64,000 bases of DNA from Candidatus Parcubacteria bacterium (GTDB lineage Bacteria > Patescibacteriota > Patescibacteriia > UBA1558 > GWA2-36-10). Of this stretch, positions 17,774 through 50,723 are shown piece by piece (the first letter of the stretch is position 1; the number at the start of each line of letters is the position of its first letter). Where the stretch lies: assembly GCA_018669975.1 (NCBI GenBank), contig JABHSK010000001.1, forward strand, positions 152,394-216,393, written 5' to 3'. The position numbers were made by a program, and so were the translations under genes. The notes under the pieces are model-generated. The model did not search any database. It saw only the letters and a program-made list of their open reading frames with translations, and was not told the origin of the DNA.

Positions 17774-17935
17774 ATTCTACTCAATTATTGAATTATCAAG
17801 TCCACGAAAATTAACATAATAGGGCTCTTTTGTCAATATTAATTAAAACAAGATTTTTTTATCTACAAAAAAATAAAACGCTTGACATATCTTTTGAGTA
17901 TGTTAGTATGTGTATATAAGACACTAACATAATTT

Positions 17936-18619
17936 ATGTCCAACCCAACAGTACAAGCGGAACACGCTAAACAAAATATCAAACTAGCTGTTGATAATTG
18001 TATTTTTACTGTCAAAGACGGCAAGCTTTTTATTTTACTAATCAAAATGAAGTCTAAGCTCCAGGGGATGTGGGCCTTACCAGGTGGCTTAATTAAAGAT
18101 ACCGAAACAATTGGTGCAGCTGCTCAACGCATTCTTAAACAAGAAACTGGTCTATCAGACAACTATCTCGAACAACTCTATACTTTTAGTCAGCCAAATC
18201 GTGATCCTTTTGCTAGGGTTATTTCTACTGCCTATTTTGCTCTAATTCCTGACGCAAACATTGAACTTAAACCAAGTCCAAAATATGATGATGTTCGTTG
18301 GTATCCTGTTAAAAAACTACCGGAATTGGCCTATGATCATAATCATATCGTTAAATATGCAAAACAAAGATTAGAGTGGAAAATCAGCTACACCAACGCT
18401 GCATGGTCTTTATTACCAGAAAAATTTACTTTGACTGAACTACAAAAAGTATATGAAGCAATATTGAATAAAAAACTGGATAAACGCAATTTTCGTAAGA
18501 AAATAGACAAAGTTGGTCTACTTAAGGAAACTAAACAAACCAAATTAGAAGGTGCACATAGACCAGCTAAATTATATGAATTTTCCAGCAAAAAGAAGAA
18601 AATAGTAGAAATTATCTAA
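17936..18619 (+). CDS. nrtR: NrtR-like regulator: a degenerate Nudix domain plus a C-terminal winged-helix DNA-binding domain.
   Basis: The Nudix box is degenerate (GGLIKDTETIGAAAQRILKQETGL; the RE/EE acidic residues are replaced). The C-terminus reads FTLTELQKVYEAILNKKLDKRNFRKK, reminiscent of the NrtR DNA-binding domain. The gene is encoded in low-GC native DNA. Confidence 0.6.
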   Translation: MSNPTVQAEHAKQNIKLAVDNCIFTVKDGKLFILLIKMKSKLQGMWALPGGLIKDTETIGAAAQRILKQETGLSDNYLEQLYTFSQPNRDPFARVISTAYFALIPDANIELKPSPKYDDVRWYPVKKLPELAYDHNHIVKYAKQRLEWKISYTNAAWSLLPEKFTLTELQKVYEAILNKKLDKRNFRKKIDKVGLLKETKQTKLEGAHRPAKLYEFSSKKKKIVEII

Positions 18620-18894
18620 TTTTACTCCTTTTCTTATATTTTTTTGTTCTTATTTAGTGTACTTTTCACACTAATAAGTAAATATACCTAAGACTTGACA
18701 AAATTACCAAAATATGATAAAAAGAACCGTTTATTTTGTAAATAATTTCAGCTTTAATCCCCTTTCCAAAGGGCGAGCCGTTTGTTGCCTAAAAAATGGA
18801 AATTAAATTAGTTTCTATGCTTTAGGTAGCAAAACCTATATGTTCGTTAACAATTTGGTTTTGAAAAACACTCAACAATGAGAAAGGAGGAGAA

Positions 18895-19755
18895 ATGAGC
18901 CTATTAGAGATTTTCCAGGTAGCAGCCGGCACAGTAGCTGGTCGCGACCACACTCAAGTAGGTAAAAACAATCAGGACGCCTTTTGCTTTGCTGCCCATG
19001 ACGATGTCATGGCTGGTGTAGTCTGTGATGGCTGCAGCACTGGCAAGCATTCGGAGGTTGGTTCTAAACTAATCGCACGCCTGATTGTCCGCCAAATCAT
19101 CACCAACAAGGACAAGTTCCAAGGTGGCGATGACTCTATTTCCCGTTTGATGCAGAGAATTAAAAACTCTGCCCTAATGTACGTCCAGCTTTTAGCTGAT
19201 GGCATGGGCATGAGTTTTTCTCAGGCAATCAATGATTATTTTCTGTTTACCCTGGTGGGTACGATTATTTTTCCGGACAAGAGTATTATTTTTTCCTTGG
19301 GTGACGGTGTCTTTGCCCACAACGGTGAAGTGACCACAGTTGGTCCTTTTCCGGGCAATGCTCCGCCCTACCTGGCTTATAACTTGGTAACAACTGATCT
19401 AGCCACCGAAAATCCTGATCTCCTGGACTTCAATGTCCATGTGATTCATGAAACTTCCCTGACAAGCTCAATCTTGATTGGCTCTGATGGGATCTGTGAC
19501 CTGATCGACATCGCCGAGCTCAATATGCCAGGCAAACCCAAGCTAGTTGGTCCCATGTCACAATTTTGGACAGACGACCGCTACTTCAACAATCCGGATA
19601 TGGTCCGACGAAAGTTGGTCCTAATCAATCGTGAAGCAACCAGACTGGATCGGGAAGGCCCAAGCTTGCAAAAGTATCCAGGCCTACTCCCCGACGATAC
19701 CACTCTGATTGCCATCCGCCGCAAACCCATTACCGAGGAAGGTGGTGAGGACTAA
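18895..19755 (+). CDS. PP2C-family Ser/Thr protein phosphatase-like protein.
   Basis: Motifs GRDHTQVGKNNQDAF, VCDGCSTGKH (DGxG), GSDGICD and DDTTLIAIR. AGGAGG RBS. GC ~55%. Confidence 0.7.
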   Translation: MSLLEIFQVAAGTVAGRDHTQVGKNNQDAFCFAAHDDVMAGVVCDGCSTGKHSEVGSKLIARLIVRQIITNKDKFQGGDDSISRLMQRIKNSALMYVQLLADGMGMSFSQAINDYFLFTLVGTIIFPDKSIIFSLGDGVFAHNGEVTTVGPFPGNAPPYLAYNLVTTDLATENPDLLDFNVHVIHETSLTSSILIGSDGICDLIDIAELNMPGKPKLVGPMSQFWTDDRYFNNPDMVRRKLVLINREATRLDREGPSLQKYPGLLPDDTTLIAIRRKPITEEGGED

Positions 19756-21632
19756 TGAACGTTTACGTTCAAGGACAACTTGTCCGTCTTGATCCTCGCA
19801 ACTCTATCGGTAAAGGTGGCGAGGCCGATGTTTTCAAGATGGGCAGCTCACAAGCTGTTAAAATATTCAAAACACCAAGTCATCCAGACTTTGTTGGACA
19901 AGATCACGAAAAAGCAGCAGCTGAAGCGAGGCTCAAAGAGCATCAGCTGAAGCTGCGCGAATTTCCGAAGGGCCTGCCGCCACGAGTCATTACTCCGGTG
20001 GACTTGGCTACCGACAAATCGGGTCGCCTGATCAAGGGCTACGTCATGCCACTGATTGGTGACTCGGAAGTTCTGCTGCGCTATGGCGAACGCAAGTTCC
20101 GCCAAGGTGTTGTCGGAAACGACATGGTGGTCAATATTTTCACAGATATGCATGACACCATATCCGGCATTCATTCCGTCAAGGTAGTCATTGGAGATTT
20201 CAACGATCTCAACATCCTGGTAACAGATCAGGGTGAAGCCTATTTCATCGATGCAGACAGCTTCCAGTTTAGCAGTTACCTGTGTCGGATGTTTACTGGC
20301 AAATTCGTTGATCCTCTACTCTGTGATCCCAAGCACAAAAGTCCGATGCTCAATAAACCCCATAATGCCGAATCAGACTGGTATTCCTTTGCCGTTATGC
20401 TCATGCAGTCACTGTTGTTCGTCGGTCCCTACGGCGGTATCTACCGTCCCAGGGACAAAGGCAAACGAATGACGCATGATGCTAGGCCGCTGCATAGAGT
20501 GACGATATTTGACCCCGAGGTCAAATATCCCAAGCCGGCTACACCCTACGGTATATTGCCGGATGATCTCTTGCAACAGTTCTATCAGATTTTTGTCAAA
20601 GATCAGCGTGGTCAATTTCCATTAACTTTACTCGAGGGTCTTCGCTGGACTACCTGCAACGCCTGTGGCGCCGAACATGCCCGAGCAATCTGCCCGGAAT
20701 GTTCACAAGCAGCTCCAGCAGCCATCAAGGAAAAAGTCACGATCAGGGGCACAGTCAAATCCACTCGGATCTTCAAGACCGGTGGCACAATTGTCTATGC
20801 TACTGTTCAAAACGGAAAATTGCGCTGGCTCTACCATGAGTCCAATATACTCAAACGCGAAGACGAGTCCCAGGTAGTGAGCGGCAAACTCAATCCTCGG
20901 ATGCGTTTCCGTATCCAGGGAAACAACACACTGATCGGCCAAACCGGCCAATTGGCAGTGGTTTCTCCTGGAAACAAACCTTCACCCATGACTGTCGACA
21001 ACTACACGGGCGTATTACCCATGTTTGATGCCAACGGTGATCACCGCTACTGGTTGCAAAACGGCCAGCTAATGCGTGACGATCGTCTCGGCACCAGCAA
21101 GGTTATCGGCGATGTCTTGGAAAACCAGACTATGTTCTGGACTGGTGACAAGTTTGGCTTTGGATTCTATCGAGCTGGAGAACTATGTAGAGCCTTCATC
21201 TTCGATGCTCAGAAGTCTATTCTCAATGATTCAGTCAAGCTGCCTCCTATCAGAGGTCAGATAGTTGACGCCACCTGTTGCATTAGCAATAACCGAGTCT
21301 GGTTCCTGGTTTCGACCAGGCAAGGCGGCAAGACTATCAATCAGTGCTTGTTGTTCAAGCCTGATGGTACTCTGGTAGCCACAGCTGAAGCTGAAGAAGG
21401 AGACGACTCCTGGCTGTCGACCATCCGTGGCAAGTGTGCTGCTGGCGACTTTATGCTAGCAGCTACTGAAGACGGCCTGGTCCGTATCGAAGCCAATGGC
21501 AGCGGTCTCAGTTTGACCAAGGAATTCCCTGACGCAGAACCATTCGTCCACCCCGGCTGCAGGCTTTTTGCCAGTCGAGAAGGACTTTGTGTCATCGATC
21601 ATCAAGAAATTCGGGTACTGAAAATTTCCTAA
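19755..21632 (+). CDS. Ser/Thr protein-kinase-like protein with a C-terminal zinc-ribbon and a beta-rich domain.
   Basis: Gly-rich loop IGKGGEADVFK with Lys in AVKIFK; catalytic-loop-like IGDFNDLNILV; DFG-like FIDADSF. It also has CNACG...CPEC. TAATG start overlap with the phosphatase suggests translational coupling. Confidence 0.65.
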   Translation: MNVYVQGQLVRLDPRNSIGKGGEADVFKMGSSQAVKIFKTPSHPDFVGQDHEKAAAEARLKEHQLKLREFPKGLPPRVITPVDLATDKSGRLIKGYVMPLIGDSEVLLRYGERKFRQGVVGNDMVVNIFTDMHDTISGIHSVKVVIGDFNDLNILVTDQGEAYFIDADSFQFSSYLCRMFTGKFVDPLLCDPKHKSPMLNKPHNAESDWYSFAVMLMQSLLFVGPYGGIYRPRDKGKRMTHDARPLHRVTIFDPEVKYPKPATPYGILPDDLLQQFYQIFVKDQRGQFPLTLLEGLRWTTCNACGAEHARAICPECSQAAPAAIKEKVTIRGTVKSTRIFKTGGTIVYATVQNGKLRWLYHESNILKREDESQVVSGKLNPRMRFRIQGNNTLIGQTGQLAVVSPGNKPSPMTVDNYTGVLPMFDANGDHRYWLQNGQLMRDDRLGTSKVIGDVLENQTMFWTGDKFGFGFYRAGELCRAFIFDAQKSILNDSVKLPPIRGQIVDATCCISNNRVWFLVSTRQGGKTINQCLLFKPDGTLVATAEAEEGDDSWLSTIRGKCAAGDFMLAATEDGLVRIEANGSGLSLTKEFPDAEPFVHPGCRLFASREGLCVIDHQEIRVLKIS

Positions 21633-21715
21633 ATCTAGGAAAGGAGCCTCCAAAAAAATATTACGCAAGTCAATTCTTTCACAGAACGATTAACCAAACC
21701 TGAGGAGAACATACC

Positions 21716-22762
21716 ATGTCTCAGCTCAACACTCTGCCCGTGCCCGCTCACTTCAATCCGGCTCGCGCCAACGAAGTGTACCGTGTTGGCTACCAGGGTC
21801 TGGCCACCGAAGCCGCAGCCTGGCGCAAACAGCATGACATCCGTCCCGCTGCCAGCGATCGCAAGGTCATCACTCTGATGCCCATCGACTGCCAAAACAC
21901 CTTCTGTCTGCCCGAGTTCGAACTGTTCGTGGGCGGCCAGTCTGGCACCGGTGCCATCGACGACAACGTCCGCTTGACGGAGTTCATCTACCGCAACCTG
22001 GGCGTACTGACCAAGATCACGCCAACGATGGACACCCATCTGCTGATGCAGATCTTCCATTCCATCTTCTGGGTCAACGAGGCCGGCGAAAATCCGGAAC
22101 CCAATGCCACCGTCATCACTCTTGACGACGTCAAGGCGGGAACCTGGAAAGTCAATCCGGCCATCGCGCACAGTATCGCCAGAGGCAACTACACGGCACT
22201 GCAGGCTCACGCCATGCACTATGTCGAGAAGCTGACCGATGACGGCAAGTATCCCCTGATGATCTGGGGTTACCACGCCATGCTCGGTGGCATCGGCCAC
22301 GCTCTGACCTCAATCATCGAAGAAGCCTGTTTCTTCCACGCTGTGGTTCGCCACAGCCAAACTGGCTTCGAAACCAAGGGCGGCGATCCACTGACGGAAA
22401 ACTATTCGGTTCTCCGTCCCGAAGTGCTGACCACCACCGGCGACAAAGTGCGTACTCAGAAGAACGCCATGTTTATCCGTACGCTCCTCGAGTCCGACGC
22501 GGTCATTATCGCCGGTCAGGCCAAGAGCCACTGTGTGGCTTGGACTATCGCCGATCTTCTGGACGAGATCAACGCCCAGGATCCGACGCTGGCCAAGAAG
22601 GTTTATCTGCTCGAAGACTGCACCTCACCGGTGGTTATCCCTGGCGTGATTGATTTCACTGACCAGGCCAACGAGGCATTCCAGCGTTTCGCTGACGCCG
22701 GCATGCACGTGGTACAGTCCACCGATCCGATCGACACCTGGCCCGGCCTCAACCTGGGCTAG
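21716..22762 (+). CDS. Isochorismatase-family cysteine hydrolase, nicotinamidase (PncA)-like, with a ~150-aa extension.
   Basis: MPIDCQNTFC (the VDxQNDF equivalent), metal-binding MDTHLL...FH, and catalytic Cys in GQAKSHCVAWT. Confidence 0.55.
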   Translation: MSQLNTLPVPAHFNPARANEVYRVGYQGLATEAAAWRKQHDIRPAASDRKVITLMPIDCQNTFCLPEFELFVGGQSGTGAIDDNVRLTEFIYRNLGVLTKITPTMDTHLLMQIFHSIFWVNEAGENPEPNATVITLDDVKAGTWKVNPAIAHSIARGNYTALQAHAMHYVEKLTDDGKYPLMIWGYHAMLGGIGHALTSIIEEACFFHAVVRHSQTGFETKGGDPLTENYSVLRPEVLTTTGDKVRTQKNAMFIRTLLESDAVIIAGQAKSHCVAWTIADLLDEINAQDPTLAKKVYLLEDCTSPVVIPGVIDFTDQANEAFQRFADAGMHVVQSTDPIDTWPGLNLG

Positions 22763-22830
22763 TTCCTACTAACTCAAGTTCAATAAGTATTTAGTCAAAC
22801 AACCTTAAACCTCTAAAAGGAGGCTCAATA

Positions 22831-23610
22831 ATGAGTGATGTCAACAGTCTGTTCCAGTCAGCTGCCGATGAAGGCGAATTGTCGCCCGAGGCTCTCGGTG
22901 TATTGCAGGTGGCGGATGTCGGTGCTCAAATCCAGAATGCTCTGGGTGTGGACCCCGACGAGTTCGAGGCTTCCGAGGTCATCCTGATGACCCAGATGCC
23001 CGACGACTCCGGTTCCATTCGCTTTGCTGGCAATAGCCAAGTGATGCGTGACGGCCACAACCTGGTCCTGGAATCGCTCGGCGGCACCAAGCAAGCCGAC
23101 GCTGTCCTGGCCATGTGTCGCTACCTGAACGGTCACGTACTGTATCCTTACAGTCCGCTGGCCCAGGCAGTACGCATGGACAGCAACAACTACGACCCGA
23201 ACCACGGTACCCCGCTCTATGACGAAACGGTAGTCTTGCTCGGTGCGGTCCTGGCCAAGGCCCAGGAGTTCGCCGACAATGGCATCGTCGCTCGGACGGT
23301 GACGCTGATCATCTCCGATGGCGCCGATGTTCACTCCCGTCGCAACACCCCAACCGATGTCGCCAAACTGGTCAAGGACATGCTCAAGCAGGAAAACCAC
23401 ATCGTGGCTGCCATGGGCATCGATGACGGCGACACCGACTTTCGGCAGGTCTTCAGCGAGATGGGTATTCTGGACGAGTGGATTCTGACTCCTGGCAACA
23501 GCGAGAGTGAAATCCGCGCGGCTTTCCAGACCGTTTCGCAGTCGGCCGTTCGTGCCTCCCAGGGAGGCGCCAGCTTCTCGCAGACTGCCATGGGCGGCTT
23601 CGGGAGCTGA
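22831..23610 (+). CDS. von Willebrand factor A (vWA) domain protein, TerY-like.
   Basis: MIDAS-like DDSGS and ISDGAD motifs. It is the third member of a phosphatase/kinase/vWA triad. A terminator hairpin follows at ~23640-23680. Confidence 0.5.
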   Translation: MSDVNSLFQSAADEGELSPEALGVLQVADVGAQIQNALGVDPDEFEASEVILMTQMPDDSGSIRFAGNSQVMRDGHNLVLESLGGTKQADAVLAMCRYLNGHVLYPYSPLAQAVRMDSNNYDPNHGTPLYDETVVLLGAVLAKAQEFADNGIVARTVTLIISDGADVHSRRNTPTDVAKLVKDMLKQENHIVAAMGIDDGDTDFRQVFSEMGILDEWILTPGNSESEIRAAFQTVSQSAVRASQGGASFSQTAMGGFGS

Positions 23611-23819
23611 GCTAGCTCTGGGATAATTCAAAACCAAATATTAGGAGGTGCACCCCACGTGGTGCACCTCCGCCCCTTTTTTCTTTAGAAATAAGAAAAT
23701 TGTAGCTAAAATAATTTGGCTATAACCTTTTTGTTCCTAACCTTAAAAGTTTCGAGCATAGTTTTGAACCTTCACAAATGAAACGTTTAGATAAAAATCT
23801 CAAACCAAGGAGAAAAATC

Positions 23820-24389
23820 ATGGCAAATAACATGCCGCAAAGACTCGTCTACGATGGCTTCCTAAAAGTCAAAGTAGTCGAAACACCCGAGGGACCTCGT
23901 GAAGTGGTCCAGGTAACCAATTCTGTCAGCATTCTGCTCTTCAACCCAGACGAAAAATACGTACTCTTAATCCGACAAGCTCGAGTTCCTATGATTTCTG
24001 ATAGCAATCCTGGCGGCTTCATAGTAGAAACCGTAGCTGGTCGCTTTGATATCAATGTAGGTGTCACAGCATTGGCAATTAAGGAAGCCCAGGAAGAGGT
24101 CGGCGCCACCATCGAAGAAAGCGATGTCGTATTACTTAATGGTGGTAAGCCGCTGGCTTTGTCGCCCGGTGTTTTAACCGAGCGCGCCTACCTGGCCATG
24201 GCCAAAGTTGATGTACCCTACGGCGAAGCCACAGACCGTGTCTTTGGTGTCGCCGATGAAGGTGAAAGCATCCAACGCGTCTTCATGAAATTCGATGAGA
24301 TCACCGATTATCTCAACAGCGGCCAGTGCGAAGACCTGCGTGTCTTTACTCTGCTGAGCATGCTGCTGATGTCGGAAAATTTCGAATAA
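23820..24389 (+). CDS. NUDIX hydrolase, ADP-ribose pyrophosphatase-like.
   Basis: Nudix box AGRFDINVGVTALAIKEAQEEVGA and aaggag RBS. The start was chosen at MANNMPQ (23820). Confidence 0.7.
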   Translation: MANNMPQRLVYDGFLKVKVVETPEGPREVVQVTNSVSILLFNPDEKYVLLIRQARVPMISDSNPGGFIVETVAGRFDINVGVTALAIKEAQEEVGATIEESDVVLLNGGKPLALSPGVLTERAYLAMAKVDVPYGEATDRVFGVADEGESIQRVFMKFDEITDYLNSGQCEDLRVFTLLSMLLMSENFE

Positions 24390-24453
24390 AACCCTCCCAA
24401 ACACATTGACCCGAAGTAATTTGTAATAACGAACCAAAAGAAGGGAAAAAACC

Positions 24454-25332
24454 ATGGCCAAAGATCCTGGAACCATTAAAAGGTTACCTGACGGAACTGT
24501 AAAAGTCAGGGCCCAAAATATGAGTCCTGGCATCCTCAAGTGGCCTGGAGTTCAGTGTGAAAACCCTGATGCTCCCGAAGCCGAGCGATATTACTTCAAG
24601 ATCTTTACTGACAAGACTGTTTATCTGCCCGACGAATACGAACAAGCTGTTCGAGAAGTGCTGCGATCCGGTAAGGATATCGTAGTTTTAGCCGGCAACG
24701 GCTACTCGGATATCAACCCTCAGCGTTGCGCTGACTGGGGCATTAAGCAGGGCGCTTACGAAGAAGCTTCGTTTGCCCTACTGGATAATGCGTACCAGAG
24801 ACTGCGTGAACAGCTAACTGGTATCGATATCCGGATTGCTCATGGAGCATCCCATATGGGTATCGATCTGGTCCTGATGCGTCTGGCTGAGAAATACAAC
24901 ATTCCTCAGTTGGGGCACAGCTGTGTCCGCTATATGTTCTACGTGCAGGACGATGATATCCCAGTATGGGTTGGCAATGATGTCGATCACTACGTCGAAG
25001 GATTCACCGATTCCCTGGACGTTCTGGTGTCAGCCAACGGAGCTCTGCAGTCCTATCGAATGGACGTCAAAGCTGTATTCGAAAAAGGCAAGCACTGGAT
25101 CCCACTCAATGTACTCCAGGCTATTTCTACCACTGGTGGTCCCCCGGCCATGGATGCCGACGGCAAGATCGTCGACGCCGTAGCCCTGTTCTACCAGAGG
25201 GTGCATATGATCACCGTACAGATGGGAGTAGTCGGTGAAGATCACTGGCTCAGCATGGTCGACAAGACCTCAACAACGCTGGTTTCCATCTGTCGCAATC
25301 TGATTAGCCCCCAAAGGGCTTTCATGACATAA
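24454..25332 (+). CDS. Hypothetical protein, possibly a Rossmann-like nucleotide/ligand-binding (SLOG/LOG-like) domain.
   Basis: The only hint is the DIVVLAGNGYSDINPQRCADWGI segment, which loosely recalls DprA/LOG-type glycine-rich strands. No firm motif was found. Confidence 0.4.
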   Translation: MAKDPGTIKRLPDGTVKVRAQNMSPGILKWPGVQCENPDAPEAERYYFKIFTDKTVYLPDEYEQAVREVLRSGKDIVVLAGNGYSDINPQRCADWGIKQGAYEEASFALLDNAYQRLREQLTGIDIRIAHGASHMGIDLVLMRLAEKYNIPQLGHSCVRYMFYVQDDDIPVWVGNDVDHYVEGFTDSLDVLVSANGALQSYRMDVKAVFEKGKHWIPLNVLQAISTTGGPPAMDADGKIVDAVALFYQRVHMITVQMGVVGEDHWLSMVDKTSTTLVSICRNLISPQRAFMT

Positions 25333-25344
25333 AAGGAGGAGTCG

Positions 25345-26601
25345 ATGAAAGACCGACCAATCATCACCTCTCTCATGGACATCGACTTCTACAAGTTGAC
25401 CATGGGACAATTGATTTTTCTCATGTATCCGGATGTGCAAACAACTTTCCGATTCATCAATCGAACCAAGGGTGTGCCTTTGTCGCACTACGTCGACATT
25501 GGTGAACTACGTGAACAGTTGCAGCATGTCCAGACCCTGCGTGTAAACAACACCGAGCTGCACTATCTAAGGGGAACCAACGAATACGGCGAGCGGATGT
25601 TCCGCGAGCCGTACCTAGAATTCCTGCGCGATATGCAGCTACCGGATTTCGAGCTGTCAACTGACAGTGATGGACAACTTCGTATATTCTTCCCTGGTCT
25701 CTGGTCTACCAATACCTATTGGGAGACTCTGGCCCTGTCGATTACCAGCGAGCTGTGGTGTCGTTCCCAGATGAAGCATCTCAGTCGCTTCGAGCGTGAG
25801 CTAATCTGGGCCGAAGGTCAAAAACGACTGGCTACCAAGCTAGCTATCCTAACCGATCCCCAAAACAGCAGTCTGACCATTTCGGACTTTGGTACTCGTC
25901 GTCGCTTCTCCAAGGAGTGGCAGTGGTATGTGGTCCGTACACTGGCTGAGGAACTTCTCCCTGGACAGTTCCTGGGAACCTCCAATGTCCAGTGCGCCAT
26001 GGATCATGGCCTACTACCGATGGGTACCTCGGCTCACGAATTGCCGATGGTTCTATCGGGTATCATGCACGGTAGTGATGATGAAATCCGCGCCTCCAGC
26101 CAGAAGGTTCTGGCGGACTGGTGGGAAATCTATGGCCACGGCCTGTCGATCTTCCTGCCGGATACCTATGGCACTGATTTCTTCTTTAATGATCTGACTC
26201 GTGAACAGGTCGAAAATTGGAAGGGCTTCCGCCACGATTCGGGTGATCCGATCGAGTTTGGCGAGAAAGTTCTCCGCCTCTATCAGCGTCACGGTGTCGA
26301 TCCTCTGGCTACCGGCAAGTTCATCGTTTTCAGCGATGGACTGGATATGAACACTATCATCCAGCTACACCAGCACTTCAGGGATCGCATCCGTATCAGC
26401 TTTGGTTGGGGTACTAACCTGACCAATGACATGGGTCTGCGCACCTTGTCTCTGGTAATCAAGGCTTACGAGGCCTGCGGTCACGGCTTAGTCAAGTTGT
26501 CTGACAACCTGGACAAAGCCACCGGTCTGCCGGATGACATCGAACGTTTCAAGGCTATTTTTGGCCACACCACTACCTATCGACAGGAGTGTTTGGTCTA
26601 A
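25345..26601 (+). CDS. pncB: Nicotinate phosphoribosyltransferase.
   Basis: DIDFYKLTMGQLIF, DFGTRRRFS, GTSNVQCAMDHGLLPMGTSAHE, GFRHDSGDP and KLSDNLDKATG give close collinear similarity to E. coli PncB. A terminator hairpin follows at ~26607-26640. Confidence 0.85.
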   Translation: MKDRPIITSLMDIDFYKLTMGQLIFLMYPDVQTTFRFINRTKGVPLSHYVDIGELREQLQHVQTLRVNNTELHYLRGTNEYGERMFREPYLEFLRDMQLPDFELSTDSDGQLRIFFPGLWSTNTYWETLALSITSELWCRSQMKHLSRFERELIWAEGQKRLATKLAILTDPQNSSLTISDFGTRRRFSKEWQWYVVRTLAEELLPGQFLGTSNVQCAMDHGLLPMGTSAHELPMVLSGIMHGSDDEIRASSQKVLADWWEIYGHGLSIFLPDTYGTDFFFNDLTREQVENWKGFRHDSGDPIEFGEKVLRLYQRHGVDPLATGKFIVFSDGLDMNTIIQLHQHFRDRIRISFGWGTNLTNDMGLRTLSLVIKAYEACGHGLVKLSDNLDKATGLPDDIERFKAIFGHTTTYRQECLV

Positions 26602-26709
26602 TTATATTGGTGGTGACTCCGTGTCACCACCCTTTTCTCAAGTTACTTATGCATTAGGTGATTTAAGAGAAGTAAAAAGTTCATTCACAATTCACAGAAA
26701 GGAAAAACC

Positions 26710-27636
26710 ATGGCTACCATAGTGTATTCATGCCAAGGCATGCAAAATTTGTCCGACGACCTAGTAGGAACTGGCGTACAAGTTAGGCGAATTGACTGGA
26801 AAACGTTTAAGGATGGCTATCCGGACCTTATTATTCCTGATGTCCATGAAATCCGCGGCAATGACGTGGTTTTCCTGGCCAGCATGGAAAATCCCCAAAC
26901 CATCTTCGAACAACTATCAGTTATTTATGCCATACCTCGCTATGGCGCCCGTTCCTTGACCATTGTATTACCCTATTTCCCGACAGCCACCAAGGATCGT
27001 GTGGATGAGGAAGGTGAAATCTGCACCGCCAAAACTCTGGCGAGAATGTTTTCAGCTACTCCCTTGTCTATGCACGGACCGGCTCGTCTGGTGATGTTTG
27101 ACATTCATGCTCTGCAGGAAAGATTCTATTTCGAAGATACCATTATCCCGCAAATGGCTACGGCCATTCCTCTGCTCAAAAAGCAACTGGAAACGGATGC
27201 AAGTATCGCTATCGCCTTTCCTGATGAAGGTGCCTGGAAGCGCTTCCATCGTTTCTTTGAAGACTACCCGCAGATCATCTGCCACAAAGTCCGTCAAGGA
27301 GATGAACGCATCGTCACCATCAAAGAGGGTAATCCGCGTGGTTATCATGTAGTCATCGTCGATGATTTGGTCATGACCGGTGGCACTCTGGATGAGTGTC
27401 GCAAAGTTTGCATCGAAGCTGGCGCCAAGACTGTTAGTGCTTTTGTTACCCACCCGGTCTTTCCCCAAGAATCCTGGAAACGCTTTACTGGCAGTGGTCC
27501 TGATCAATTTAAGAATTTCTGGATCACAGATTCTTGCCCTGATACTATCAAGGCTATTAATCATGCACACCCCTTCAAACTTCTACCCCTGACACAGACA
27601 ATTCGTGATATAATAGATAGCGAAATAAGACACTAA
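26710..27636 (+). CDS. prs: Ribose-phosphate pyrophosphokinase (PRPP synthetase) family protein with an atypical N-terminus. It could be a canonical Prs or an ADPR-PP-synthetase-type paralogue.
   Basis: VMFDIHALQERFYFE (like DLHAEQIQGFFD), IAFPDEGAWKRF, the PRPP-binding loop VIVDDLVMTGGTL, and VSAFVTHPVF. Confidence 0.75.
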   Translation: MATIVYSCQGMQNLSDDLVGTGVQVRRIDWKTFKDGYPDLIIPDVHEIRGNDVVFLASMENPQTIFEQLSVIYAIPRYGARSLTIVLPYFPTATKDRVDEEGEICTAKTLARMFSATPLSMHGPARLVMFDIHALQERFYFEDTIIPQMATAIPLLKKQLETDASIAIAFPDEGAWKRFHRFFEDYPQIICHKVRQGDERIVTIKEGNPRGYHVVIVDDLVMTGGTLDECRKVCIEAGAKTVSAFVTHPVFPQESWKRFTGSGPDQFKNFWITDSCPDTIKAINHAHPFKLLPLTQTIRDIIDSEIRH

Positions 27637-27669
27637 CCAAGACCGCAAGGTCCAAGGAGGAATAAAATC

Positions 27670-28620
27670 ATGAGCAACACCACAGGTATCCTTAGCCGAG
27701 ATCAGATCCGCACAGTGGTCGATCGCGGTGCGCAGTCACTCCTCGATTACTGCCGACTACACAACATTCACTATCTGGTCACTGGTCAGTCCGGCGGTCT
27801 AGATTCGGCTGTTACTCTGGGTTTTGCCCAGCGAGCCTGCCAGTTGGCCGAGGCCAATAATTTTCAGTTGACTTCGGTCGGACTGATTATGCCCTGCCAT
27901 TCCGATGAATCCGCCGAACGCCTAGGTATGAAGGCTATTGAAAAGTTTGGTGCCAAGCAGATGATTATCGATCTGACACCAACTTTTGATCACGCTTTCA
28001 ACAACTCCTCATTGATGAGTCACACCGACATCCAGGTGCGGCAAATTCTTAAGGAAACCGGCGGAGACAAGTCGTTAACTGAATGGACCTGGTCCCAGAA
28101 GATCGCCCAGGGAAACATCAAGGCTCGTCTACGCATGATGTACGGCACCTATCACGTGGCTCGCATGATGCAGGGCATGGTTCTGTCCACTGACAACCTG
28201 TCCGAATTCTGGATGGCCTTTTGGACTATCAACGGCGATGTCGGTGACTACGGCATCGTTCAGCAGATTATGAAGGGTCTGGAACTCTACCAGATTGCCG
28301 AATATTTGGGTGTACCCGACGAGATTCTGGAAGCCAAACCCGATGACGGTCTCAATGTAGGTAACGGCGACGCCGATCAACTCGGCGCCGACTATCCAAC
28401 CATCGACCGCATTATGGTCCATCTAATCCAGCAAGGATTCGATCCCGACGGTTCCATGGATCAACTGGACGGGCTCCCAGCCATCGATGGCGTTCACTAT
28501 CACATCGTTCGCAGCATTGCCGAACGCTGTCTGCGTGGTGCATTCAAGCGCCACGGCACCATCATCCTTTCTCGTGAAAATCTGGATCTACCTCCTATCA
28601 AGGAGATCGTTCTGCCCTAG
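27670..28620 (+). CDS. nadE: NH3-dependent NAD+ synthetase.
   Basis: PP-loop LVTGQSGGLDSAV, NIKARLRMMYGTYHVA and STDNLSEFWMAFWTINGDVGDY show NadE family collinearity. Confidence 0.8.
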   Translation: MSNTTGILSRDQIRTVVDRGAQSLLDYCRLHNIHYLVTGQSGGLDSAVTLGFAQRACQLAEANNFQLTSVGLIMPCHSDESAERLGMKAIEKFGAKQMIIDLTPTFDHAFNNSSLMSHTDIQVRQILKETGGDKSLTEWTWSQKIAQGNIKARLRMMYGTYHVARMMQGMVLSTDNLSEFWMAFWTINGDVGDYGIVQQIMKGLELYQIAEYLGVPDEILEAKPDDGLNVGNGDADQLGADYPTIDRIMVHLIQQGFDPDGSMDQLDGLPAIDGVHYHIVRSIAERCLRGAFKRHGTIILSRENLDLPPIKEIVLP

Positions 28621-28646
28621 TGGTAAAATATGATCCGAATATAAAA

Positions 28647-28690
28647 CCCCGCCTGCGCATTCGCGCGGCGGGGCTTTTTCTTTGTTTTTA
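28647..28690 (+). terminator. Rho-independent terminator at the end of the NAD island. A near-identical copy lies at 56577-56615.
   Basis: ccccgcc-tgcgcattcgcgc-ggcgggg followed by ctttttctttgttttt. Confidence 0.7.
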
Positions 28691-28697
28691 ATTTTTG

Positions 28698-30458
28698 TTA
28701 TTTTATAAAACCACCAACTTGTTTTTCCCAAAGATTTTTATAAACACCTTTGGATTTCTTTAATAATTCATCATGTGTACCCTGCTCGATTATCTGACCT
28801 TCATCCAAAACAACTATTCTGTCCATTTGTCTGATAGTGGATAAACGGTGAGCAATAACCATGACAGTTTTATCTTTCATAAGGTTAGCTAGTGCACCTT
28901 GAATCAATTGCTCTGAATCTGAATCTAGACTAGAAGTAGCTTCATCTAAAATTAAAATTGGTGCATTTTTCAAGATAGCCCTAGCTATAGCTACCCGCTG
29001 ACGTTCACCACCAGAAAGTTTGACTCCCCGCTCACCAACAAAGGTCTGATAGGATTCGGAAAATTGCGAAATAAAGCCATGGCAATGTGCTTGTTTAGCT
29101 GCCTTAACAACCTCAGCATCAGTAGCTCCAGGATTGCCATATTTAATATTTTCTTTAAGTGTGCGGTGAAATAAAATTGGGTCTTGATTAACTAAAGCAA
29201 TATTTTTCCAAATACTTTCTTGCTTAACACAAGATATCTTCTGATCATCTATCAAAATATTACCTGATTCTAAGTCATAATTTCTTAGTAAAAGATTTAC
29301 TAAAGTGGATTTACCTGAGCCAGAGACACCAACCAAAGCAAGTTTTTCTTTTGGTTTAATAGATAAATTAAGATTCTTAATAACTCGGCGAGTACGTCGA
29401 TAACTAAAGTTAACATCCTTTAATTCTATCTTGGCTTGAGAAATCTGAAGATCTTTAGCGTTTCTAGCATCTTTAATTTCATGTGGTTTCTCTAAAATTT
29501 CAGTCATTTCTTTGGCTTCGGCAATTTGTTCATAAACATAACGAATCACTCTACCAAAATTCCAAACTCTATTAAAAATAGCTAAAACATAAGCCTGGAT
29601 TAAGAAAAAGTCACCAATTGTCAAAACGCCTCTTTGCCATAATTTAATTGCAAAATACAGCATGCCAAATTCCAATAATATCATAAGCAGTGCCTGGACA
29701 GCATCAAATACGCCCGTTAGCTTCCAGGAAAAGAAACGTAAGCTTCTTAGCTCTTCATTAAGCTTGGCAAAAGTTTTAACTTCCCTTTTATAACCAGAAA
29801 ATAATTTTATATTGGCATTGTTGGTGATAGTGTCTGCCAAAAATCCCGTTATCTTAGAGTCAGCTTCACTTCTTTTAATATCGTGTTTTAATTTGTATAA
29901 ACTAAGATGATAATTTATAAATGAAAAAACTACTACCCAAACTATAACGCCGATAGACATCCACATATTACTTTGCCACAAAACAATAACTATAAAAACA
30001 ATACTGACTATAGCTGGCAAGAATGTCCAGTAGAATGCTTCCATAATACCGTCAAAGGCTCTAGTAAAACGATTAACTCTCTTGACTAGGGCACCAGTAA
30101 AATCATTATTGAAAAAAGAAACTGAATGCTTGTGTAAATATTCAAAGCTACTATTATTAATGCTAACCATAGATTGGGTTTGAAAATATCCAGCAGCAAA
30201 AGTAGTGATGCGCCAGAATACCCAAGTAATAACATTAAACAATAGGACCATCAAAATCATGTGAATCATGCCTGGCAATTTACTTTCCACGTCTCCGGCT
30301 CCGGCTAGAATATTGAAAAAATCTTTATAGAAAATAGGAATAACAATACCACCAGCTGACGCTAGTACAATAGAGCTAACCACCAACAAAAATGACTTGG
30401 GGTGTTTTTTGAGGTGTTTAAAATAAATCTTAAATGTTTTTTTTGTGTAATCTTGCAT
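28698..30458 (-). CDS. ABC exporter, fused permease/ATPase (MsbA/multidrug-type).
   Basis: Six transmembrane segments, Walker A GVSGSGKST, signature LSGGERQRVAIARA and Walker B ILILDEATS. Confidence 0.85.
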   Translation of the reverse strand: MQDYTKKTFKIYFKHLKKHPKSFLLVVSSIVLASAGGIVIPIFYKDFFNILAGAGDVESKLPGMIHMILMVLLFNVITWVFWRITTFAAGYFQTQSMVSINNSSFEYLHKHSVSFFNNDFTGALVKRVNRFTRAFDGIMEAFYWTFLPAIVSIVFIVIVLWQSNMWMSIGVIVWVVVFSFINYHLSLYKLKHDIKRSEADSKITGFLADTITNNANIKLFSGYKREVKTFAKLNEELRSLRFFSWKLTGVFDAVQALLMILLEFGMLYFAIKLWQRGVLTIGDFFLIQAYVLAIFNRVWNFGRVIRYVYEQIAEAKEMTEILEKPHEIKDARNAKDLQISQAKIELKDVNFSYRRTRRVIKNLNLSIKPKEKLALVGVSGSGKSTLVNLLLRNYDLESGNILIDDQKISCVKQESIWKNIALVNQDPILFHRTLKENIKYGNPGATDAEVVKAAKQAHCHGFISQFSESYQTFVGERGVKLSGGERQRVAIARAILKNAPILILDEATSSLDSDSEQLIQGALANLMKDKTVMVIAHRLSTIRQMDRIVVLDEGQIIEQGTHDELLKKSKGVYKNLWEKQVGGFIK

Positions 30459-30791: not shown

Positions 30792-31511
30792 CTATTTTTT
30801 ACCTAATAAGATACCCAAAATATCTTGAGCTGAATGCTCGCCAACAACATCTTCAAAAAAATGAAGCGTATCAAACTGGCGCAGCAATACTATCACTAAT
30901 ATAACACAAGTGCCGAAAGCTCCCTTTAATATTGAAGATGTAAGTTGAGCTTGGGATGGAATCAGAGAGACAGTTAGTAATAAAATAAAAGCTAAAAAAG
31001 CTATTAAAAACCACTGAAAGTGAGGAATGCGCTCCTGGTATAGAACTACCATCTTTTTTCTAGCTATTTGCAAATCTCTAGCAATCCTCAAATTTTCTCT
31101 AATAACAGCCGCTTCAGCAATTGATGCTTTATTTCTATCAATTGCCCTGTTTAATTTATTTATATCAATTATGGTTGAAGATTTATTTACAAAATGATAA
31201 TCCCAAGCTTTATTTTTTATAATTTTTGTATAATGAGCTTTGATTATTTTTTTTATACTATCAGTGTGCTTTGAACCAAAATATTCAAAATTTCTATACA
31301 AAGAAGACATCATTCCATCAAAAACTGCAATTTGATTTCTAATAGCATTGTATCTTCTACCCTGTCTAGCAATAAAAAATCCTGAAAAAGTTGCAAACAA
31401 GAAAGTTGAGATACTCAAAAATAAAGTGTGTGAATCTGTCGGTGTAAAATTAAAAGAATAATAGACAGCTGATAGAAACAAGAATAGAGTAAATAATAAA
31501 TATTTAAACAT
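30792..31511 (-). CDS. Hypothetical membrane protein (DUF4239-like topology).
   Basis: Transmembrane segments at both the N- and C-terminus with a charged central region. Confidence 0.45.
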   Translation of the reverse strand: MFKYLLFTLFLFLSAVYYSFNFTPTDSHTLFLSISTFLFATFSGFFIARQGRRYNAIRNQIAVFDGMMSSLYRNFEYFGSKHTDSIKKIIKAHYTKIIKNKAWDYHFVNKSSTIIDINKLNRAIDRNKASIAEAAVIRENLRIARDLQIARKKMVVLYQERIPHFQWFLIAFLAFILLLTVSLIPSQAQLTSSILKGAFGTCVILVIVLLRQFDTLHFFEDVVGEHSAQDILGILLGKK

Positions 31512-31586
31512 AATCCCTCCGTTAGTTTATTATTAACATTAAAATTATAACATTTTCTGTTCCAAAATAAAAATTTCCTAAGCTAA

Positions 31587-32078
31587 TCAGGAGTTTTCTA
31601 ATTTTTCCAAAACAATATCTATTTCATGCCTAACATTATCAAACATCGGTAGATCCTTCATTTCTTCAAGTGAAAACCAACCAATATTATGAGACTCCTC
31701 TATTTGATGATTGACCTCCTGCATTGGCACCTCTATCACATAAACAAAATCTAAATGATAGTGCTCAGGGAAATCACCATAGGGATCTATTCTTTCTTCC
31801 AATAAAAAAGTAGGTAAAGGCAAAATATTAGCCCGCTCATCAATAACTTTAACATCCTTTAAAAAAGCTTGAATATCAACACCTGATTCTTCTTTGACCT
31901 CACGCACTGCTGCTTCAACTGGATTTTCCATTGGCTCGATGTGGCCGCCTGGTGGCATCCATTTGTCATATTTAATATGATGCGTCAACAAAAACTTTCG
32001 TGGTTTCATTTTAGAAACTATAAAGACTGTAGCCGTATAATGTTTCTCCCCTAAATTAGGTATTATTTTTTTATCCAT
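31587..32078 (-). CDS. NUDIX hydrolase.
   Basis: Nudix box GGHIEPMENPVEAAVREVKEESGV. Confidence 0.75.
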   Translation of the reverse strand: MDKKIIPNLGEKHYTATVFIVSKMKPRKFLLTHHIKYDKWMPPGGHIEPMENPVEAAVREVKEESGVDIQAFLKDVKVIDERANILPLPTFLLEERIDPYGDFPEHYHLDFVYVIEVPMQEVNHQIEESHNIGWFSLEEMKDLPMFDNVRHEIDIVLEKLENS

Positions 32079-35414: not shown

Positions 35415-36145
35415 TCTTCCCTCCCTTTTTTATCTAGAGTTAACTTTCTCGATTCCTTACTACATAATCCGTGCAAAGCTTGGGCTGCATTATACAAACC
35501 ATCATCTGATATACTACGCCGCAATTGACGGCGATCATTATCAGAAAACTCATCTGACAAAACAGCTTGAGCTAAAGGCAAAAGAGCCTCTACTTGTCCC
35601 TTCAATGCCTGAAATATGGCATCACGTGAACTTTGTCTTAAGCTAGTAGGTAGCGATCGTTCAGTCCTCTGACTTGTTTTGAGAATAGGACGATCATTTA
35701 AACCAACGAAGTCTTCGGCTGGGTAACGTTTGAGTATAGCTTCGATCATAGCGAGCTTAGCTCTACCAGCATTGCAAACGTTATTAAGCACCGGAAAAAA
35801 TGAATCTCTGCCAGCATAACCTAATTTCTGACACGCTTCATCAAAAGACATCCGACCGATTGAAATAATCCATCCCAAAGACAGGACCTGTGGTGCCAAG
35901 TCTCTCAACTCAGCCACATCATATCCCCGACTATGGAGAAAATACTTCAACCGAATAAGATTTTTACCCGAGGGCATTTTTTTACCATTAAGCCAACGAT
36001 AGGCTAATGGATCAGAAGCTTTGCAGAAATCAGCCAAGGGTTTCCTGGCTGCCAATACTTGTGACTTGCCAGTTGGCAAGGTTCCTGCGTAATGATCCAA
36101 ACATTGTCTGGCATTACCTGAAAAATTAACGGGGGTTTTTCCCAT
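35411..36145 (-). CDS. Hypothetical protein, upstream partner translationally coupled to the GHKL ATPase.
   Basis: ATGA overlap with the downstream gene. Strong RBS gaaggagg and a TTGACA-N17-TAATTT promoter on the minus strand at ~36255-36287. Confidence 0.5.
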   Translation of the reverse strand: MGKTPVNFSGNARQCLDHYAGTLPTGKSQVLAARKPLADFCKASDPLAYRWLNGKKMPSGKNLIRLKYFLHSRGYDVAELRDLAPQVLSLGWIISIGRMSFDEACQKLGYAGRDSFFPVLNNVCNAGRAKLAMIEAILKRYPAEDFVGLNDRPILKTSQRTERSLPTSLRQSSRDAIFQALKGQVEALLPLAQAVLSDEFSDNDRRQLRRSISDDGLYNAAQALHGLCSKESRKLTLDKKGREE

Positions 36146-48370: not shown

Positions 48371-48452
48371 ACAGATCCTTGTCGAGGTCCTGTTCGGCTA
48401 CTACGCCGAGCGGGACCTCTTTTTTTCCTTATTTTTTAAGTATTTCATACTA

Positions 48453-50711: not shown

Positions 50712-50723
50712 GGAGGTCTTCCA

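Follow-up and report, generated by a model that had tools for sequence, protein, structure and literature searches.

A PP2C, kinase, nicotinamidase-like amidase and vWA cassette with a predicted NrtR regulator, joined to NAD salvage genes in a Parcubacteria genome

The locus described here lies in a stretch of 64,000 nucleotides (the window, taken at its full length) of contig JABHSK010000001.1, from a genome of Candidatus Parcubacteria in the candidate phyla radiation (CPR). Nine co-directional open reading frames (ORFs) form a block between positions 18895-28620 (~9.7 kb), hereafter the island, which stands behind nrtR, a gene for a Nudix-related repressor predicted to sense ADP-ribose (ADPR). 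The first four island genes encode a PP2C-type Ser/Thr phosphatase, a Ser/Thr kinase, a nicotinamidase-like amidase (p348), and a protein with a von Willebrand factor A (vWA) domain (p259). The other five encode a Nudix hydrolase, a putative SLOG-fold protein (p292), nicotinate phosphoribosyltransferase (PncB), a divergent protein of the phosphoribosyl pyrophosphate (PRPP) synthetase family (Prs-like), and NAD+ synthetase (NadE) (Table 1). A preliminary description of the sequence had proposed nine co-directional genes in which a phosphatase, kinase, and vWA triad is physically joined to genes for the salvage of nicotinamide adenine dinucleotide (NAD). The ORF list bore out the nine genes, domain-model and profile searches together with motif alignments supported all of the proposed gene identities, and the linkage between triad and salvage genes was confirmed. 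The main addition made here is that the triad together with the nicotinamidase forms a widespread cassette under predicted NrtR control, present in many phyla and on jumbo-phage-like contigs.

Table 1. Genes and predicted signals of the island and its upstream region, with positions in the window.
Feature	Coordinates	Strand	Evidence
Promoter-like site of nrtR	17882..17909	+	TTGACA-16-TAGTAT with upstream TG; best sigma-70-like match in region, 10/12 positions; consensus match only
Predicted NrtR operator 1	17909..17925		TGTGT-ATATAAG-ACACT; starts at last base of the nrtR promoter -10 hexamer
nrtR, Nudix-related repressor, predicted ADP-ribose sensor	17936..18619	+	NrtR_WHD (PF21906) 3.8e-28; NUDIX (PF00293) 1.4e-16; NCBIfam NtrR 7.9e-47
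Predicted NrtR operator 2	18655..18673		TAGTGT-ACTTTTC-ACACTA, perfect palindrome in the nrtR-PP2C spacer
PP2C-type Ser/Thr phosphatase, first core gene	18895..19755	+	286 aa; PF13672 PP2C_2 6e-15, 55.8 bits vs cut-off 24
Ser/Thr kinase	19755..21632	+	625 aa; kinase aa 1-~265; 4-Cys Zn-ribbon aa 301-316; 7-bladed beta-propeller aa ~330-625
p348, putative metal-dependent nicotinamidase-like amidase, isochorismatase fold (enlarged PncA)	21716..22762	+	PncA-type motif set
p259, vWA protein	22831..23610	+	259 aa; complete MIDAS motif; conserved S/Q-rich C-terminal tail
Strong hairpin and T-run, terminator or attenuator between core and accessory genes	23644..23671	+	11-bp stem, 8 G-C pairs (terminator scan)
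Nudix hydrolase, ADP-ribose/NDP-sugar pyrophosphatase (YffH/AdpP) type	23820..24389	+	TIGR00052 7.2e-14; NudK 5.5e-14; ADPR diphosphatase 1.3e-10
p292, putative SLOG-fold protein (LOG / TRPM2 ADPR-binding-domain fold)	24454..25332	+	292 aa; AF2 pLDDT 92.1
PncB, nicotinate phosphoribosyltransferase	25345..26601	+	NF003704 422.5 bits vs cut-off 379; NAPRTase 1.4e-45; NAPRTase_N 1.9e-20
Hairpin after pncB, possible internal terminator	26609..26631	+	9-bp stem, 6 G-C pairs (terminator scan)
Divergent PRPP-synthetase-family (Prs-like) protein	26710..27636	+	TIGR01251 123.5 bits vs cut-off 113
NadE, NH3-type NAD+ synthetase	27670..28620	+	NAD_synthase 6e-31; TIGR00552 95.7 bits vs cut-off 63.65
Intrinsic terminator closing the island	28647..28684	+	CCCCGCC...GGCGGGG then T-run; terminator scan caught part (28660-28672); host GC right after

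Gene order was counted from the six-frame ORFs of 80 species-level loci, which were searched with the window proteins. The kinase family had 335 matches in a one-genome-per-species collection, full-length and at 50-67% identity, with hosts that include Sorangium, Minicystis, and metagenome-assembled genomes (MAGs) of Gammaproteobacteria. The cassette was found in Patescibacteria, Cyanobacteria, Myxococcota, Gammaproteobacteria, Acidobacteriota, Planctomycetota, Gemmatimonadota, Desulfobacterota, and one Aenigmatarchaeota genome, and thereby reaches at least 8 phyla and one archaeon. The PP2C gene stood directly upstream of the kinase gene at 70 of 71 loci, and the nicotinamidase and vWA genes followed directly downstream at 60 of 67. 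Among the 80 loci, PncB was present in 13, the Nudix gene in six, the Prs-like gene in two, and NadE of the window type and the SLOG protein p292 in one each. The conserved core is PP2C-kinase-nicotinamidase-vWA, in this fixed order. The nicotinamidase, which had first been counted with the appended salvage set, is instead a fixed core member together with the triad. The full nine-gene order proved to be rare, and nearly the same order was found at only one other species-level locus (L012, Parcubacteria). Some cyanobacterial loci carry PP2C and kinase genes without the amidase and vWA genes; an alternative effector module was considered for these loci and rejected, as the downstream genes were housekeeping genes (Hsp70-like, S41 protease, GHMP kinase, DnaN). 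Two JGI contigs of 1.72 Mb and 228 kb (L009 and L010; GC 0.29-0.30) carried the four core genes intact amid gene calls that were nearly all tiny ORFs. The pattern suggests that the genes were called with an incorrect genetic code and that the genome comes, e.g., from a stop-codon-recoded CPR lineage, in which case the cassette avoids the recoded codon or arrived recently.

The assignments of the three triad proteins were upheld. The PP2C protein was recognized by its Pfam model, and the kinase fell below the threshold of Pfam Pkinase (3.3e-4) while its profile aligned with that of six bona fide Hanks kinases encoded in related loci or other retrieved records at 92% probability in hhalign (E 6.6e-7, 217 columns). 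This alignment takes in subdomain IX, which is absent from small-molecule kinases. In an 18-sequence alignment, the invariant positions comprised GKGGEA, K36, D148..N153, and D166 in the kinase domain and C301/C304/C313/C316 in the Zn-ribbon. The C-terminal half of the kinase was modeled by AlphaFold2 (AF2) as all-beta (pLDDT 91.3), and Foldseek matched it to generic WD40/Kelch seven-bladed propellers only (E about 2e-6); a profile search of the kinase against PDB sequences returned nothing. The family comprised 603 clusters at E<=1e-30 among 1.84 billion representatives, all about 620 aa in length.

The vWA protein p259 retains the invariant residues D58-x-S60-x-S62, T127, and D163 of the metal ion-dependent adhesion site (MIDAS). 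It aligned at 96.9% (hhalign, E 1.6e-10) with a Prevotella vWA protein that scores above the Pfam VWA threshold, and its homologues gave weak matches to VWA_CoxE and VWA_2. Against PDB, a single-sequence search with p259 returned nothing usable and a profile search nothing relevant. The tail of p259 (residues about 232-259) is nearly invariant, F-SQSAVRASQ-x-A-x-FSQ-x-A-x-GGFG, with S236/S238/A239/R241/S243 among the invariant positions, and it is a candidate phospho-acceptor or MIDAS-docking peptide for the adjacent kinase. A Prevotella protein (L110; Prevotella sp. E2-28 plasmid NZ_CP091789.1, 109712-111661) was the only plasmid protein detectably similar to p259. Its gene lies ~600 bp from an opposite-strand Sir2-family gene, and the locus is another neighbourhood of a vWA protein and an NAD-consuming enzyme.

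The identification of p348 as nicotinamidase-like, which the preliminary description had made, was supported by its motifs. The window protein itself had no Pfam match, and Pfam Isochorismatase (PF00857) matched 9 of 20 homologues (best 4.6e-5). The catalytic triad D58, K221, and C273 and the metal site D106-x-H108 with H187 were invariant in 20 sequences. The best PDB profile match was PncA of M. tuberculosis (3pl1), which was weak (E 0.085) and collinear on all three motifs, with the PncA segments D8, H71, and C138; a single-sequence search against PDB sequences returned nothing usable. Members of the family carry the public names 'isochorismatase' (NCBI) and 'nicotinamidase-related amidase' (JGI). 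Like PncA/Pnc1 (e.g., 3pl1), p348 would have an isochorismatase fold with the Asp-Lys-Cys triad and the Asp-x-His...His metal site in the same chain order. In known PncA enzymes, the metal ligands bind the free pyridine nitrogen, and their retention in p348 argues for free nicotinamide as the probable substrate. Unlike PncA/Pnc1, which have about 186-230 aa, p348 has 348 aa, with ~50 extra aa at the N-terminus, a large insertion that separates the metal site from the catalytic Lys, and an extended C-terminus, and its family is always linked to the triad. Longer forms of 578-604 aa (L014:11914-13653, L018, L054, L057; P0221, P0251, P0260) carry a further ~240-aa N-terminal extension without a Pfam match.

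The regulator upstream of the island has an N-terminal Nudix-like domain and a C-terminal NrtR winged helix. Its Nudix box is degenerate (R-I-L-K-Q-E instead of R-E-U-x-E-E), as expected for a non-hydrolysing sensor. Among NrtR proteins linked to the cassette, the box was intact (R-E-L-x-E-E-T-G) in cyanobacteria and Sorangium and degenerate in Patescibacteria and gammaproteobacterial MAGs, and proteins with an intact box may also hydrolyse their own ligand in some lineages. The published NrtR motif is a 21-bp palindrome with the core GT-N7-AC, and ADP-ribose acts as anti-repressor (PMC2330246). Both predicted operators of the window agree with this consensus. Only these two sites, which flank nrtR on both sides, matched WGTGT-N7-ACACW in the 64 kb, against 0.19 expected by chance, and the zero-mismatch form TAGTGT-N7-ACACTA occurred in the window at operator 2 only. 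The position of operator 1, which starts in the promoter -10 hexamer, suggests autoregulation of nrtR.

Similar sites accompany the cassette elsewhere. GTGT-N7-ACAC was present within -300..+60 of the PP2C start at 55 of 70 related loci, frequently as paired sites upstream of PP2C with a spacing of 22-29 bp. Over 1.33 Mb of loci, 93 of the 135 such sites fell inside the 360-bp windows at PP2C starts, a 114-fold enrichment which persisted where nrtR is not adjacent; NrtR itself was encoded within 5 kb of the cassette at 37 of 61 loci. From these motif statistics, NrtR is predicted to be the conserved regulator of the cassette across phyla. The native-looking NrtR neighbour noted earlier is indeed present and host-like in composition, with a GC content at third codon positions (GC3) of 0.25, but it is more than a neighbour, being the predicted regulator that the cassette keeps, with operators, across phyla. 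In several low-GC hosts, the core genes lie 5-20 GC points above their flanks and nrtR is at host level, which suggests that the cassette has been swapped more recently than its regulator. A two-mismatch match to the operator was also seen at 31523-31541 (TAGTTT-N7-AACATTA), just upstream of a bestrophin-like gene (30792-31511, minus strand) and with a second small Nudix gene (31587-32078, minus strand) on its other side; this match was not significant, as 32 two-mismatch sites were found and 27.6 were expected. The NrtR targets nrtX-nrtY from the 2008 paper, which form two-gene operons in other taxa, were also considered and could not be linked to the cassette.

These operators bear on another account of the locus, that of an ordinary NrtR-regulated Preiss-Handler salvage operon which serves as the only NAD+ route of the CPR cell and carries the triad genes as passengers with no link to it. 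Rodionov et al. 2008 (PMC2330246) described NrtR regulons covering NAD salvage I, and operons of the nrtR-pncA-pncB-nadD-nadE type are well known (Table 1 of that paper). As in the island, the regulons combine an NrtR made of Nudix and winged-helix domains with GT-N7-AC palindromes, their targets include pncB, nadE, and prs, and ADP-ribose is the expected inducer. The reduced genome of the Parcubacteria host and the standard character of PncB and NadE also fit this account. However, the triad and the nicotinamidase occur together in fixed order across phyla (60/67 loci), pncB and nadE are missing from most loci with the triad and amidase, and the operators precede PP2C and not the salvage genes. 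The PP2C-kinase-nicotinamidase-vWA genes behind these operators are absent from the 2008 regulon tables (PMC2330246). The island further differs from the published regulons in its enlarged 348-aa nicotinamidase, in the absence of nadD, and in the foreign composition of the block, which nrtR does not share. Its Preiss-Handler set is incomplete, with PncA-type, PncB, and NadE proteins present and the NadD/NadM step not encoded. In addition, the ATG of the kinase gene shares one base with the PP2C stop at 19755, an overlap that had been noted before and that implies translational coupling. We regard the ordinary salvage operon as a most improbable explanation, and the passenger-gene reading is largely refuted by synteny and operator statistics.

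The composition of the island sets it apart from its host. Its GC content is 0.41-0.61 vs. 0.27-0.38 outside (window background ~0.35), and the edges are sharp, with a rise at ~18900, at the PP2C start, and a fall at ~28700, after NadE. Individually, the nine genes have a GC of 0.47-0.60 and a GC3 of 0.47-0.75, compared with 0.30-0.36 and 0.22-0.30 in the flanking genes (RND pump, membrane-fusion protein, nrtR, ABC transporter, bestrophin-like gene). The contrast reported in the preliminary description is therefore genuine, although its figures (53-58% vs. 30%) were somewhat overstated. Amino-acid constraint was ruled out as the cause of the GC excess by a GC3 of 0.47-0.75 vs. 0.25 in the host, and rRNA or other RNA genes were ruled out as the cause of the GC islets, since Rfam found tRNAs only. 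The GC3 contrast is a signature of foreign origin free of any amino-acid effect, and the nine-gene block was horizontally acquired by the Parcubacteria host.

The four core genes were also present on 12 IMG/VR contigs of 42-545 kb, three of which carried PncB next to the core. On the six contigs whose flanks were checked, neighbouring ORFs matched phage families (HNH endonucleases, RNA ligase, tRNA nucleotidyltransferase, Dda-like helicase, DNA transfer protein, terminase-like ATPase); genes for a capsid or portal were not seen inside the 20-kb windows of these contigs. The viral assignment is likely, though not proven for every contig. These contigs, with phage-type flanks where checked, are in line with the idea that the block is a remnant or cargo of a counter-defence module from a jumbo phage or other mobile element, recently captured and outside host physiology. 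The GC3 contrast with the host points the same way, as does the presence of a T4 Rnl1-like RNA ligase in another GC-rich islet of the window. Against this, integrase genes, flanking direct repeats, and phage structural genes were looked for at the island and none were found, and megablast against phage and plasmid collections returned no nucleotide match. The island moreover sits behind an nrtR of host composition with operators, as in many other cellular genomes, and its nine ORFs are intact. The kinase sequence is identical on nine contigs from independent samples, which also excludes an assembly artefact. Capture of a phage remnant is, in our judgement, highly improbable. The island proteins and nrtR have been deposited under two MAG labels, 'Chloroflexi bacterium' (HN929 tags, GCA_018693135.1) and 'Candidatus Parcubacteria bacterium' (MBT66909xx), and one of the two bins is probably contaminated.

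Further GC-rich islets were seen in the window. The second (33708-36145, minus strand, GC 0.43-0.50) holds two overlapping genes, one for a 567-aa GHKL-type ATPase (HATPase_c_3, 3e-11) and the other for a 243-aa protein without a family match, and a fragment 42% identical to the ATPase adjoins the NAD operon of the Parcubacteria locus L012. The third (47879-52320, GC up to 0.52) contains several ORFs without a family match and, at 51193-52320, the T4 Rnl1-like RNA ligase (2.9e-18). L012 encodes, at 650-1531, a homologue of the 279-aa ORF at 49872-50711 with 58% identity, and the stretch looks like more foreign cargo common to the window genome and L012. A locally GC-rich kilobase just upstream of dnaB encodes a PD-(D/E)XK nuclease (43235-44326; PDDEXK_1, 7.9e-23; weak Cas4-like PADLOC match). 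These other islets gave no significant match to PADLOC.

Translation and transcription signals within the island are mixed. The preliminary description had given every gene an AGGAGG ribosome-binding site. This motif or a near match was found at PP2C, p348, vWA, PncB, NadE, and Nudix (start 23820), but the sites at the kinase, the 292-aa gene, and the Prs-like gene were weaker and purine-rich. An AT-rich, promoter-like stretch (23684-23715) follows the hairpin between core and accessory genes. With hairpins after the vWA gene and after pncB and a terminator at the end, the island is probably transcribed in two or three units.

Among the accessory genes, curated models supported the Nudix, PncB, Prs-like, and NadE identities that had been proposed. 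The longest Nudix ORF starts at 23778; AAGGAG lies 8 nt before the ATG at 23820, public gene calls give a protein of 189 aa, and 23820 is most probably the true start. The 292-aa protein, called unknown in the preliminary description, can now be placed in the SLOG fold on the basis of its AF2 model and Foldseek matches. The matches were to the N-terminal, ADP-ribose-binding region of TRPM2 (MHR1/2; 5.7e-5), LOG proteins (about 1.5e-4), PpnN (3e-4), and MoCo-carrier proteins, over an E range of 5.7e-5 to 1e-3; a single-sequence search against PDB sequences gave nothing usable. The p292 family is rare (20 homologues in 5.8 billion proteins), and its members elsewhere stand in unrelated, uninformative gene contexts. 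The family alignment conserves NGYS, HGAS..G.D, LGHSCP, and STTGGPPA and does not contain the LOG motif PGGxGTxxE, so that a binding role or a different chemistry is likelier than that of a LOG-type N-glycosidase.

The Prs-like protein shares 29% identity with E. coli Prs, 24-26% with phage Adps, and 45-60% with its counterparts at L012 and L054. Pairwise scores were 82 bits with E. coli Prs and 61-68 bits with Adps of phages Av-05 and Vp_R1, and the best PDB match was B. subtilis Prs (78.8 bits). By these scores, the protein appears to form its own clade with the L012 and L054 counterparts; an orthologue of Adps was considered and is unsupported by the pairwise scores.

Adps belongs to one of the known phage pathways of NAD+ reconstitution (NARP), namely, NARP1 (Adps + Namat), NARP2 (Nampt + Nmnat), and NARP3 (PnuC + NadR) (10.1101/2024.02.11.579819; PMC13464706). 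Like these, the island is a compact mobile set that would rebuild NAD+ from breakdown products and places a PRPS-family enzyme beside one of the pyridine phosphoribosyltransferase family, and the cassette is likewise carried on phage-like contigs. A deamidated version of NARP1 chemistry can be envisaged on this basis, in which the Prs-like enzyme, like Adps, pyrophosphorylates ADP-ribose to its pyrophosphate (ADPR-PP), the PncB-type enzyme joins this to nicotinate from the nicotinamidase to give nicotinate adenine dinucleotide (NaAD), and NadE forms NAD+, with no adenylyltransferase needed. The island lacks NadD and ends in NadE, whose substrate is NaAD. The Prs-like protein, apparently in a clade of its own and roughly equally far from E. 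coli Prs and phage Adps, has lost the ARQDR nucleotide-binding motif, and Adps itself is a repurposed PRPS scaffold, 27% identical to B. subtilis Prs (10.1101/2024.02.11.579819; PMC13586617). On the other side, PncB scored above the NCBIfam cut-off for the genuine enzyme, and its N-domain is of the PncB type (NAPRTase_N, not NAMPT_N) and not that of Nampt/Namat. The ADPR pyrophosphatase of the island would destroy the proposed substrate, sister loci encode a fusion of NMNAT and NAD kinase that makes the canonical route simpler, and the Prs-like protein, encoded in only 2/80 loci, resembles Prs slightly more than Adps. ADPR-PP chemistry in the island seems very unlikely. The island also differs from the NARP pathways in its deamidated route through nicotinamidase, PncB, and NadE instead of the amidated Nampt/Namat, and from NARP1 in a Prs-like protein that appears, by pairwise scores, to lie outside the Adps clade, with a PncB-type neighbour in place of Namat. 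A signalling triad and a transcriptional sensor are attached to it, and most copies of the cassette are in cellular genomes.

All annotated genes in the variable shell of the sister loci were NAD- or ADPR-related, comprising PncB, an extra Nudix protein, the NMNAT-NAD kinase fusion, glutamine-dependent NadE, ADP-ribosylglycohydrolase (ARG), an LSDAT-type SLOG protein, a histidine phosphatase, and a QRPTase-like protein, with a canonical PncA at a single locus. In five cyanobacterial loci, the ARG gene separates PP2C from the kinase gene; other loci carry it at different positions. The fusion (~460 aa) joins a cytidylyltransferase-like domain of the NMN/NaMN adenylyltransferase type to an NAD kinase domain, e.g., at L054:14772-16196. 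Its family occurs in 12 loci (L054, L008, L014, L015, L016, L022, L033, L037, L045, L057, L080, L083), in ten of which it lies on the same strand ~5 kb or less downstream of the vWA gene (two ORFs end at the contig edge). The exceptions are the copy of L080, on the opposite strand, and the member of L008, a 209-aa cytidylyltransferase-like protein on the same strand ~5.4 kb downstream. Judging from its domains, the fusion would supply the adenylyltransferase step missing from the island and lead on to NADP.

The architecture of the core recalls the TerY-P triad, for which a stand-alone defence system was reportedly found by Gao et al. in 2020. As summarized in PMC11090510, the triad of Anantharaman, Iyer and Aravind (2012) consists of a vWA protein, a PP2C phosphatase, and a kinase with a C-terminal Zn-ribbon. 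Going by that summary, the cassette resembles it in linking a MIDAS vWA protein (likened at the domain level), a PP2C, and a Ser/Thr kinase that bears a 4-Cys Zn-ribbon behind its kinase domain, and in being modular, horizontally mobile, and attached to varied partner genes. The cassette differs in the seven-bladed beta-propeller after the kinase Zn-ribbon, in the order PP2C-kinase-X-vWA with the nicotinamidase as fixed fourth member, in NrtR control, and in the absence of nearby ter genes, restriction systems, or CoCoNuT components. The window, like the neighbour clusters that recur among the 80 loci, showed neither ter genes nor restriction or DNA-processing systems.

This likeness raises an explanation in which the four core genes make up a TerY-P-like system that defends against phages. 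The triad would sense infection, and the nicotinamidase would be an effector or accessory that removes nicotinamide, with the effect that NAD+ depletion becomes irreversible, product inhibition of NADases is relieved, and phage NARP1/NARP2 are starved. Beyond the triad itself (PMC11090510), this is supported by the patchy distribution shaped by horizontal transfer, the variable accessory shell, and the foreign composition in several low-GC hosts. ADPR-responsive regulators of the NrtR type have been proposed for conflict systems (PMC9503650), and phage NARP pathways consume nicotinamide (10.1101/2024.02.11.579819). However, ten proteins searched against PADLOC-DB 2.0.0 gave nothing significant (PP2C 2.4e-3, PD-T4-6 kinase 3.2e-4, vWA none), and no known defence system was detected around the cassette in the window. 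The recurrent neighbours PncB, NMNAT-NADK, and NadE serve to build NAD+ up and not to deplete it, effectors of the NADase, nuclease, or membrane type did not recur in the cassette neighbourhoods, and the cassette is also carried on phage-like contigs. We consider a defence function of the core unlikely.

The ARG-centred systems of Iyer et al. 2022 (PMC9503650, section 3.8), which combine Nudix-HTH (NrtR-like) or WYL regulators, phosphatases, and vWA chaperones and are predicted to reverse viral ADP-ribosylation, are a further comparison. The cassette shares with them an ADPR-sensing repressor of the NrtR type, a vWA protein, a phosphatase, and variable ADPR-processing accessories, to which some sister loci add the ARG. 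Their core is the ARG with rhodanese-type phosphatases, whereas that of the cassette is the kinase, PP2C, nicotinamidase, and vWA protein, with the ARG occasional and no nuclease effectors. Taken as a whole, the locus shares defining features with the TerY-P triad and with the NrtR salvage regulons, and it is set apart from both by the fixed nicotinamidase inside the triad, the kinase propeller, and the NrtR operators before the signalling genes. The preliminary description held that the combination is not a described operon type, and no published description of the cassette with NAD salvage was found in the full-text literature searched, with a passing mention possible in the 2012 Ter paper (PMC4104200) and the 2006 cyanobacterial NAD paper (PMC1446974).

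The explanation that we favour, with modest confidence, is that the block is an ADPR-induced, phospho-regulated NAD+ recycling module which was horizontally acquired and is controlled by NrtR. Cleavage of NAD+ by NADase effectors, toxins, or ADP-ribosylation turnover would raise free ADP-ribose, which would free both operators of NrtR and allow the operon to be transcribed. The nicotinamidase would then convert nicotinamide to nicotinate, the Nudix enzyme would split ADP-ribose into AMP and ribose-5-phosphate, the Prs-like enzyme would make PRPP, and PncB would form nicotinate mononucleotide (NaMN). An adenylyltransferase encoded outside the island would produce NaAD, and NadE would carry out the last step to NAD+. 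The triad would act on this pathway as a reversible post-translational switch, its target most probably being the nicotinamidase or the Ser-rich vWA tail, with the propeller as a possible docking or sensing domain. On jumbo-phage-like contigs, the cassette would restore NAD+ during infection; we infer an NAD+-rebuilding function and a relevance to NADase immunity, both strengthened by the existence of those contigs.

Several observations weigh against this recycling module. A CPR cell without de novo NAD synthesis could use the island for mere housekeeping salvage. At most loci, the core and NrtR are present and PncB, Prs, and NadE are not, so that the core by itself may serve a function other than salvage. 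The operon at L014 has a separate canonical 226-aa isochorismatase/PncA beside the long core amidase, a hint that the core enzyme may catalyse a reaction other than the simple deamidation of nicotinamide. The Prs-like protein has diverged far from canonical Prs, with TATKDR in place of the ARQDR motif, and the nine island genes include no NaMN adenylyltransferase (no cytidylyltransferase-like protein), leaving the pathway incomplete as encoded. Finally, NrtR was found on none of the 12 IMG/VR contigs, and operators on essentially none.

A bolder form of the recycling module, which we put forward only tentatively and consider doubtful, is that the cassette is an unrecognised phosphorylation-gated NAD+ restoration system on both the phage and the host side. 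In cells, it would be induced through NrtR and ADP-ribose. In jumbo phages, it would be a fourth, deamidated reconstitution pathway (nicotinamide to nicotinate, to NaMN/NaAD, to NAD+) that defeats NADase immunity, and its fullest form may use ADPR-PP chemistry and bypass the adenylyltransferase.

NAD+ depletion is among the commonest antiviral strategies of bacteria, and since 2024 three pathways by which phages rebuild NAD+ have been reported. The cassette described here couples the first committed step of nicotinamide recycling to a switch of kinase, phosphatase, and vWA protein and to an ADP-ribose-sensing repressor. If the proposed function is true, it would be the first prokaryotic NAD salvage gated by Ser/Thr phosphorylation and would give a function to one branch of the enigmatic TerY-P-type triads. 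It would also provide a candidate fourth route of phage NAD+ reconstitution together with its cellular counterpart, and it would explain how the NAD+ pool is regulated in salvage-dependent, genome-reduced CPR bacteria.

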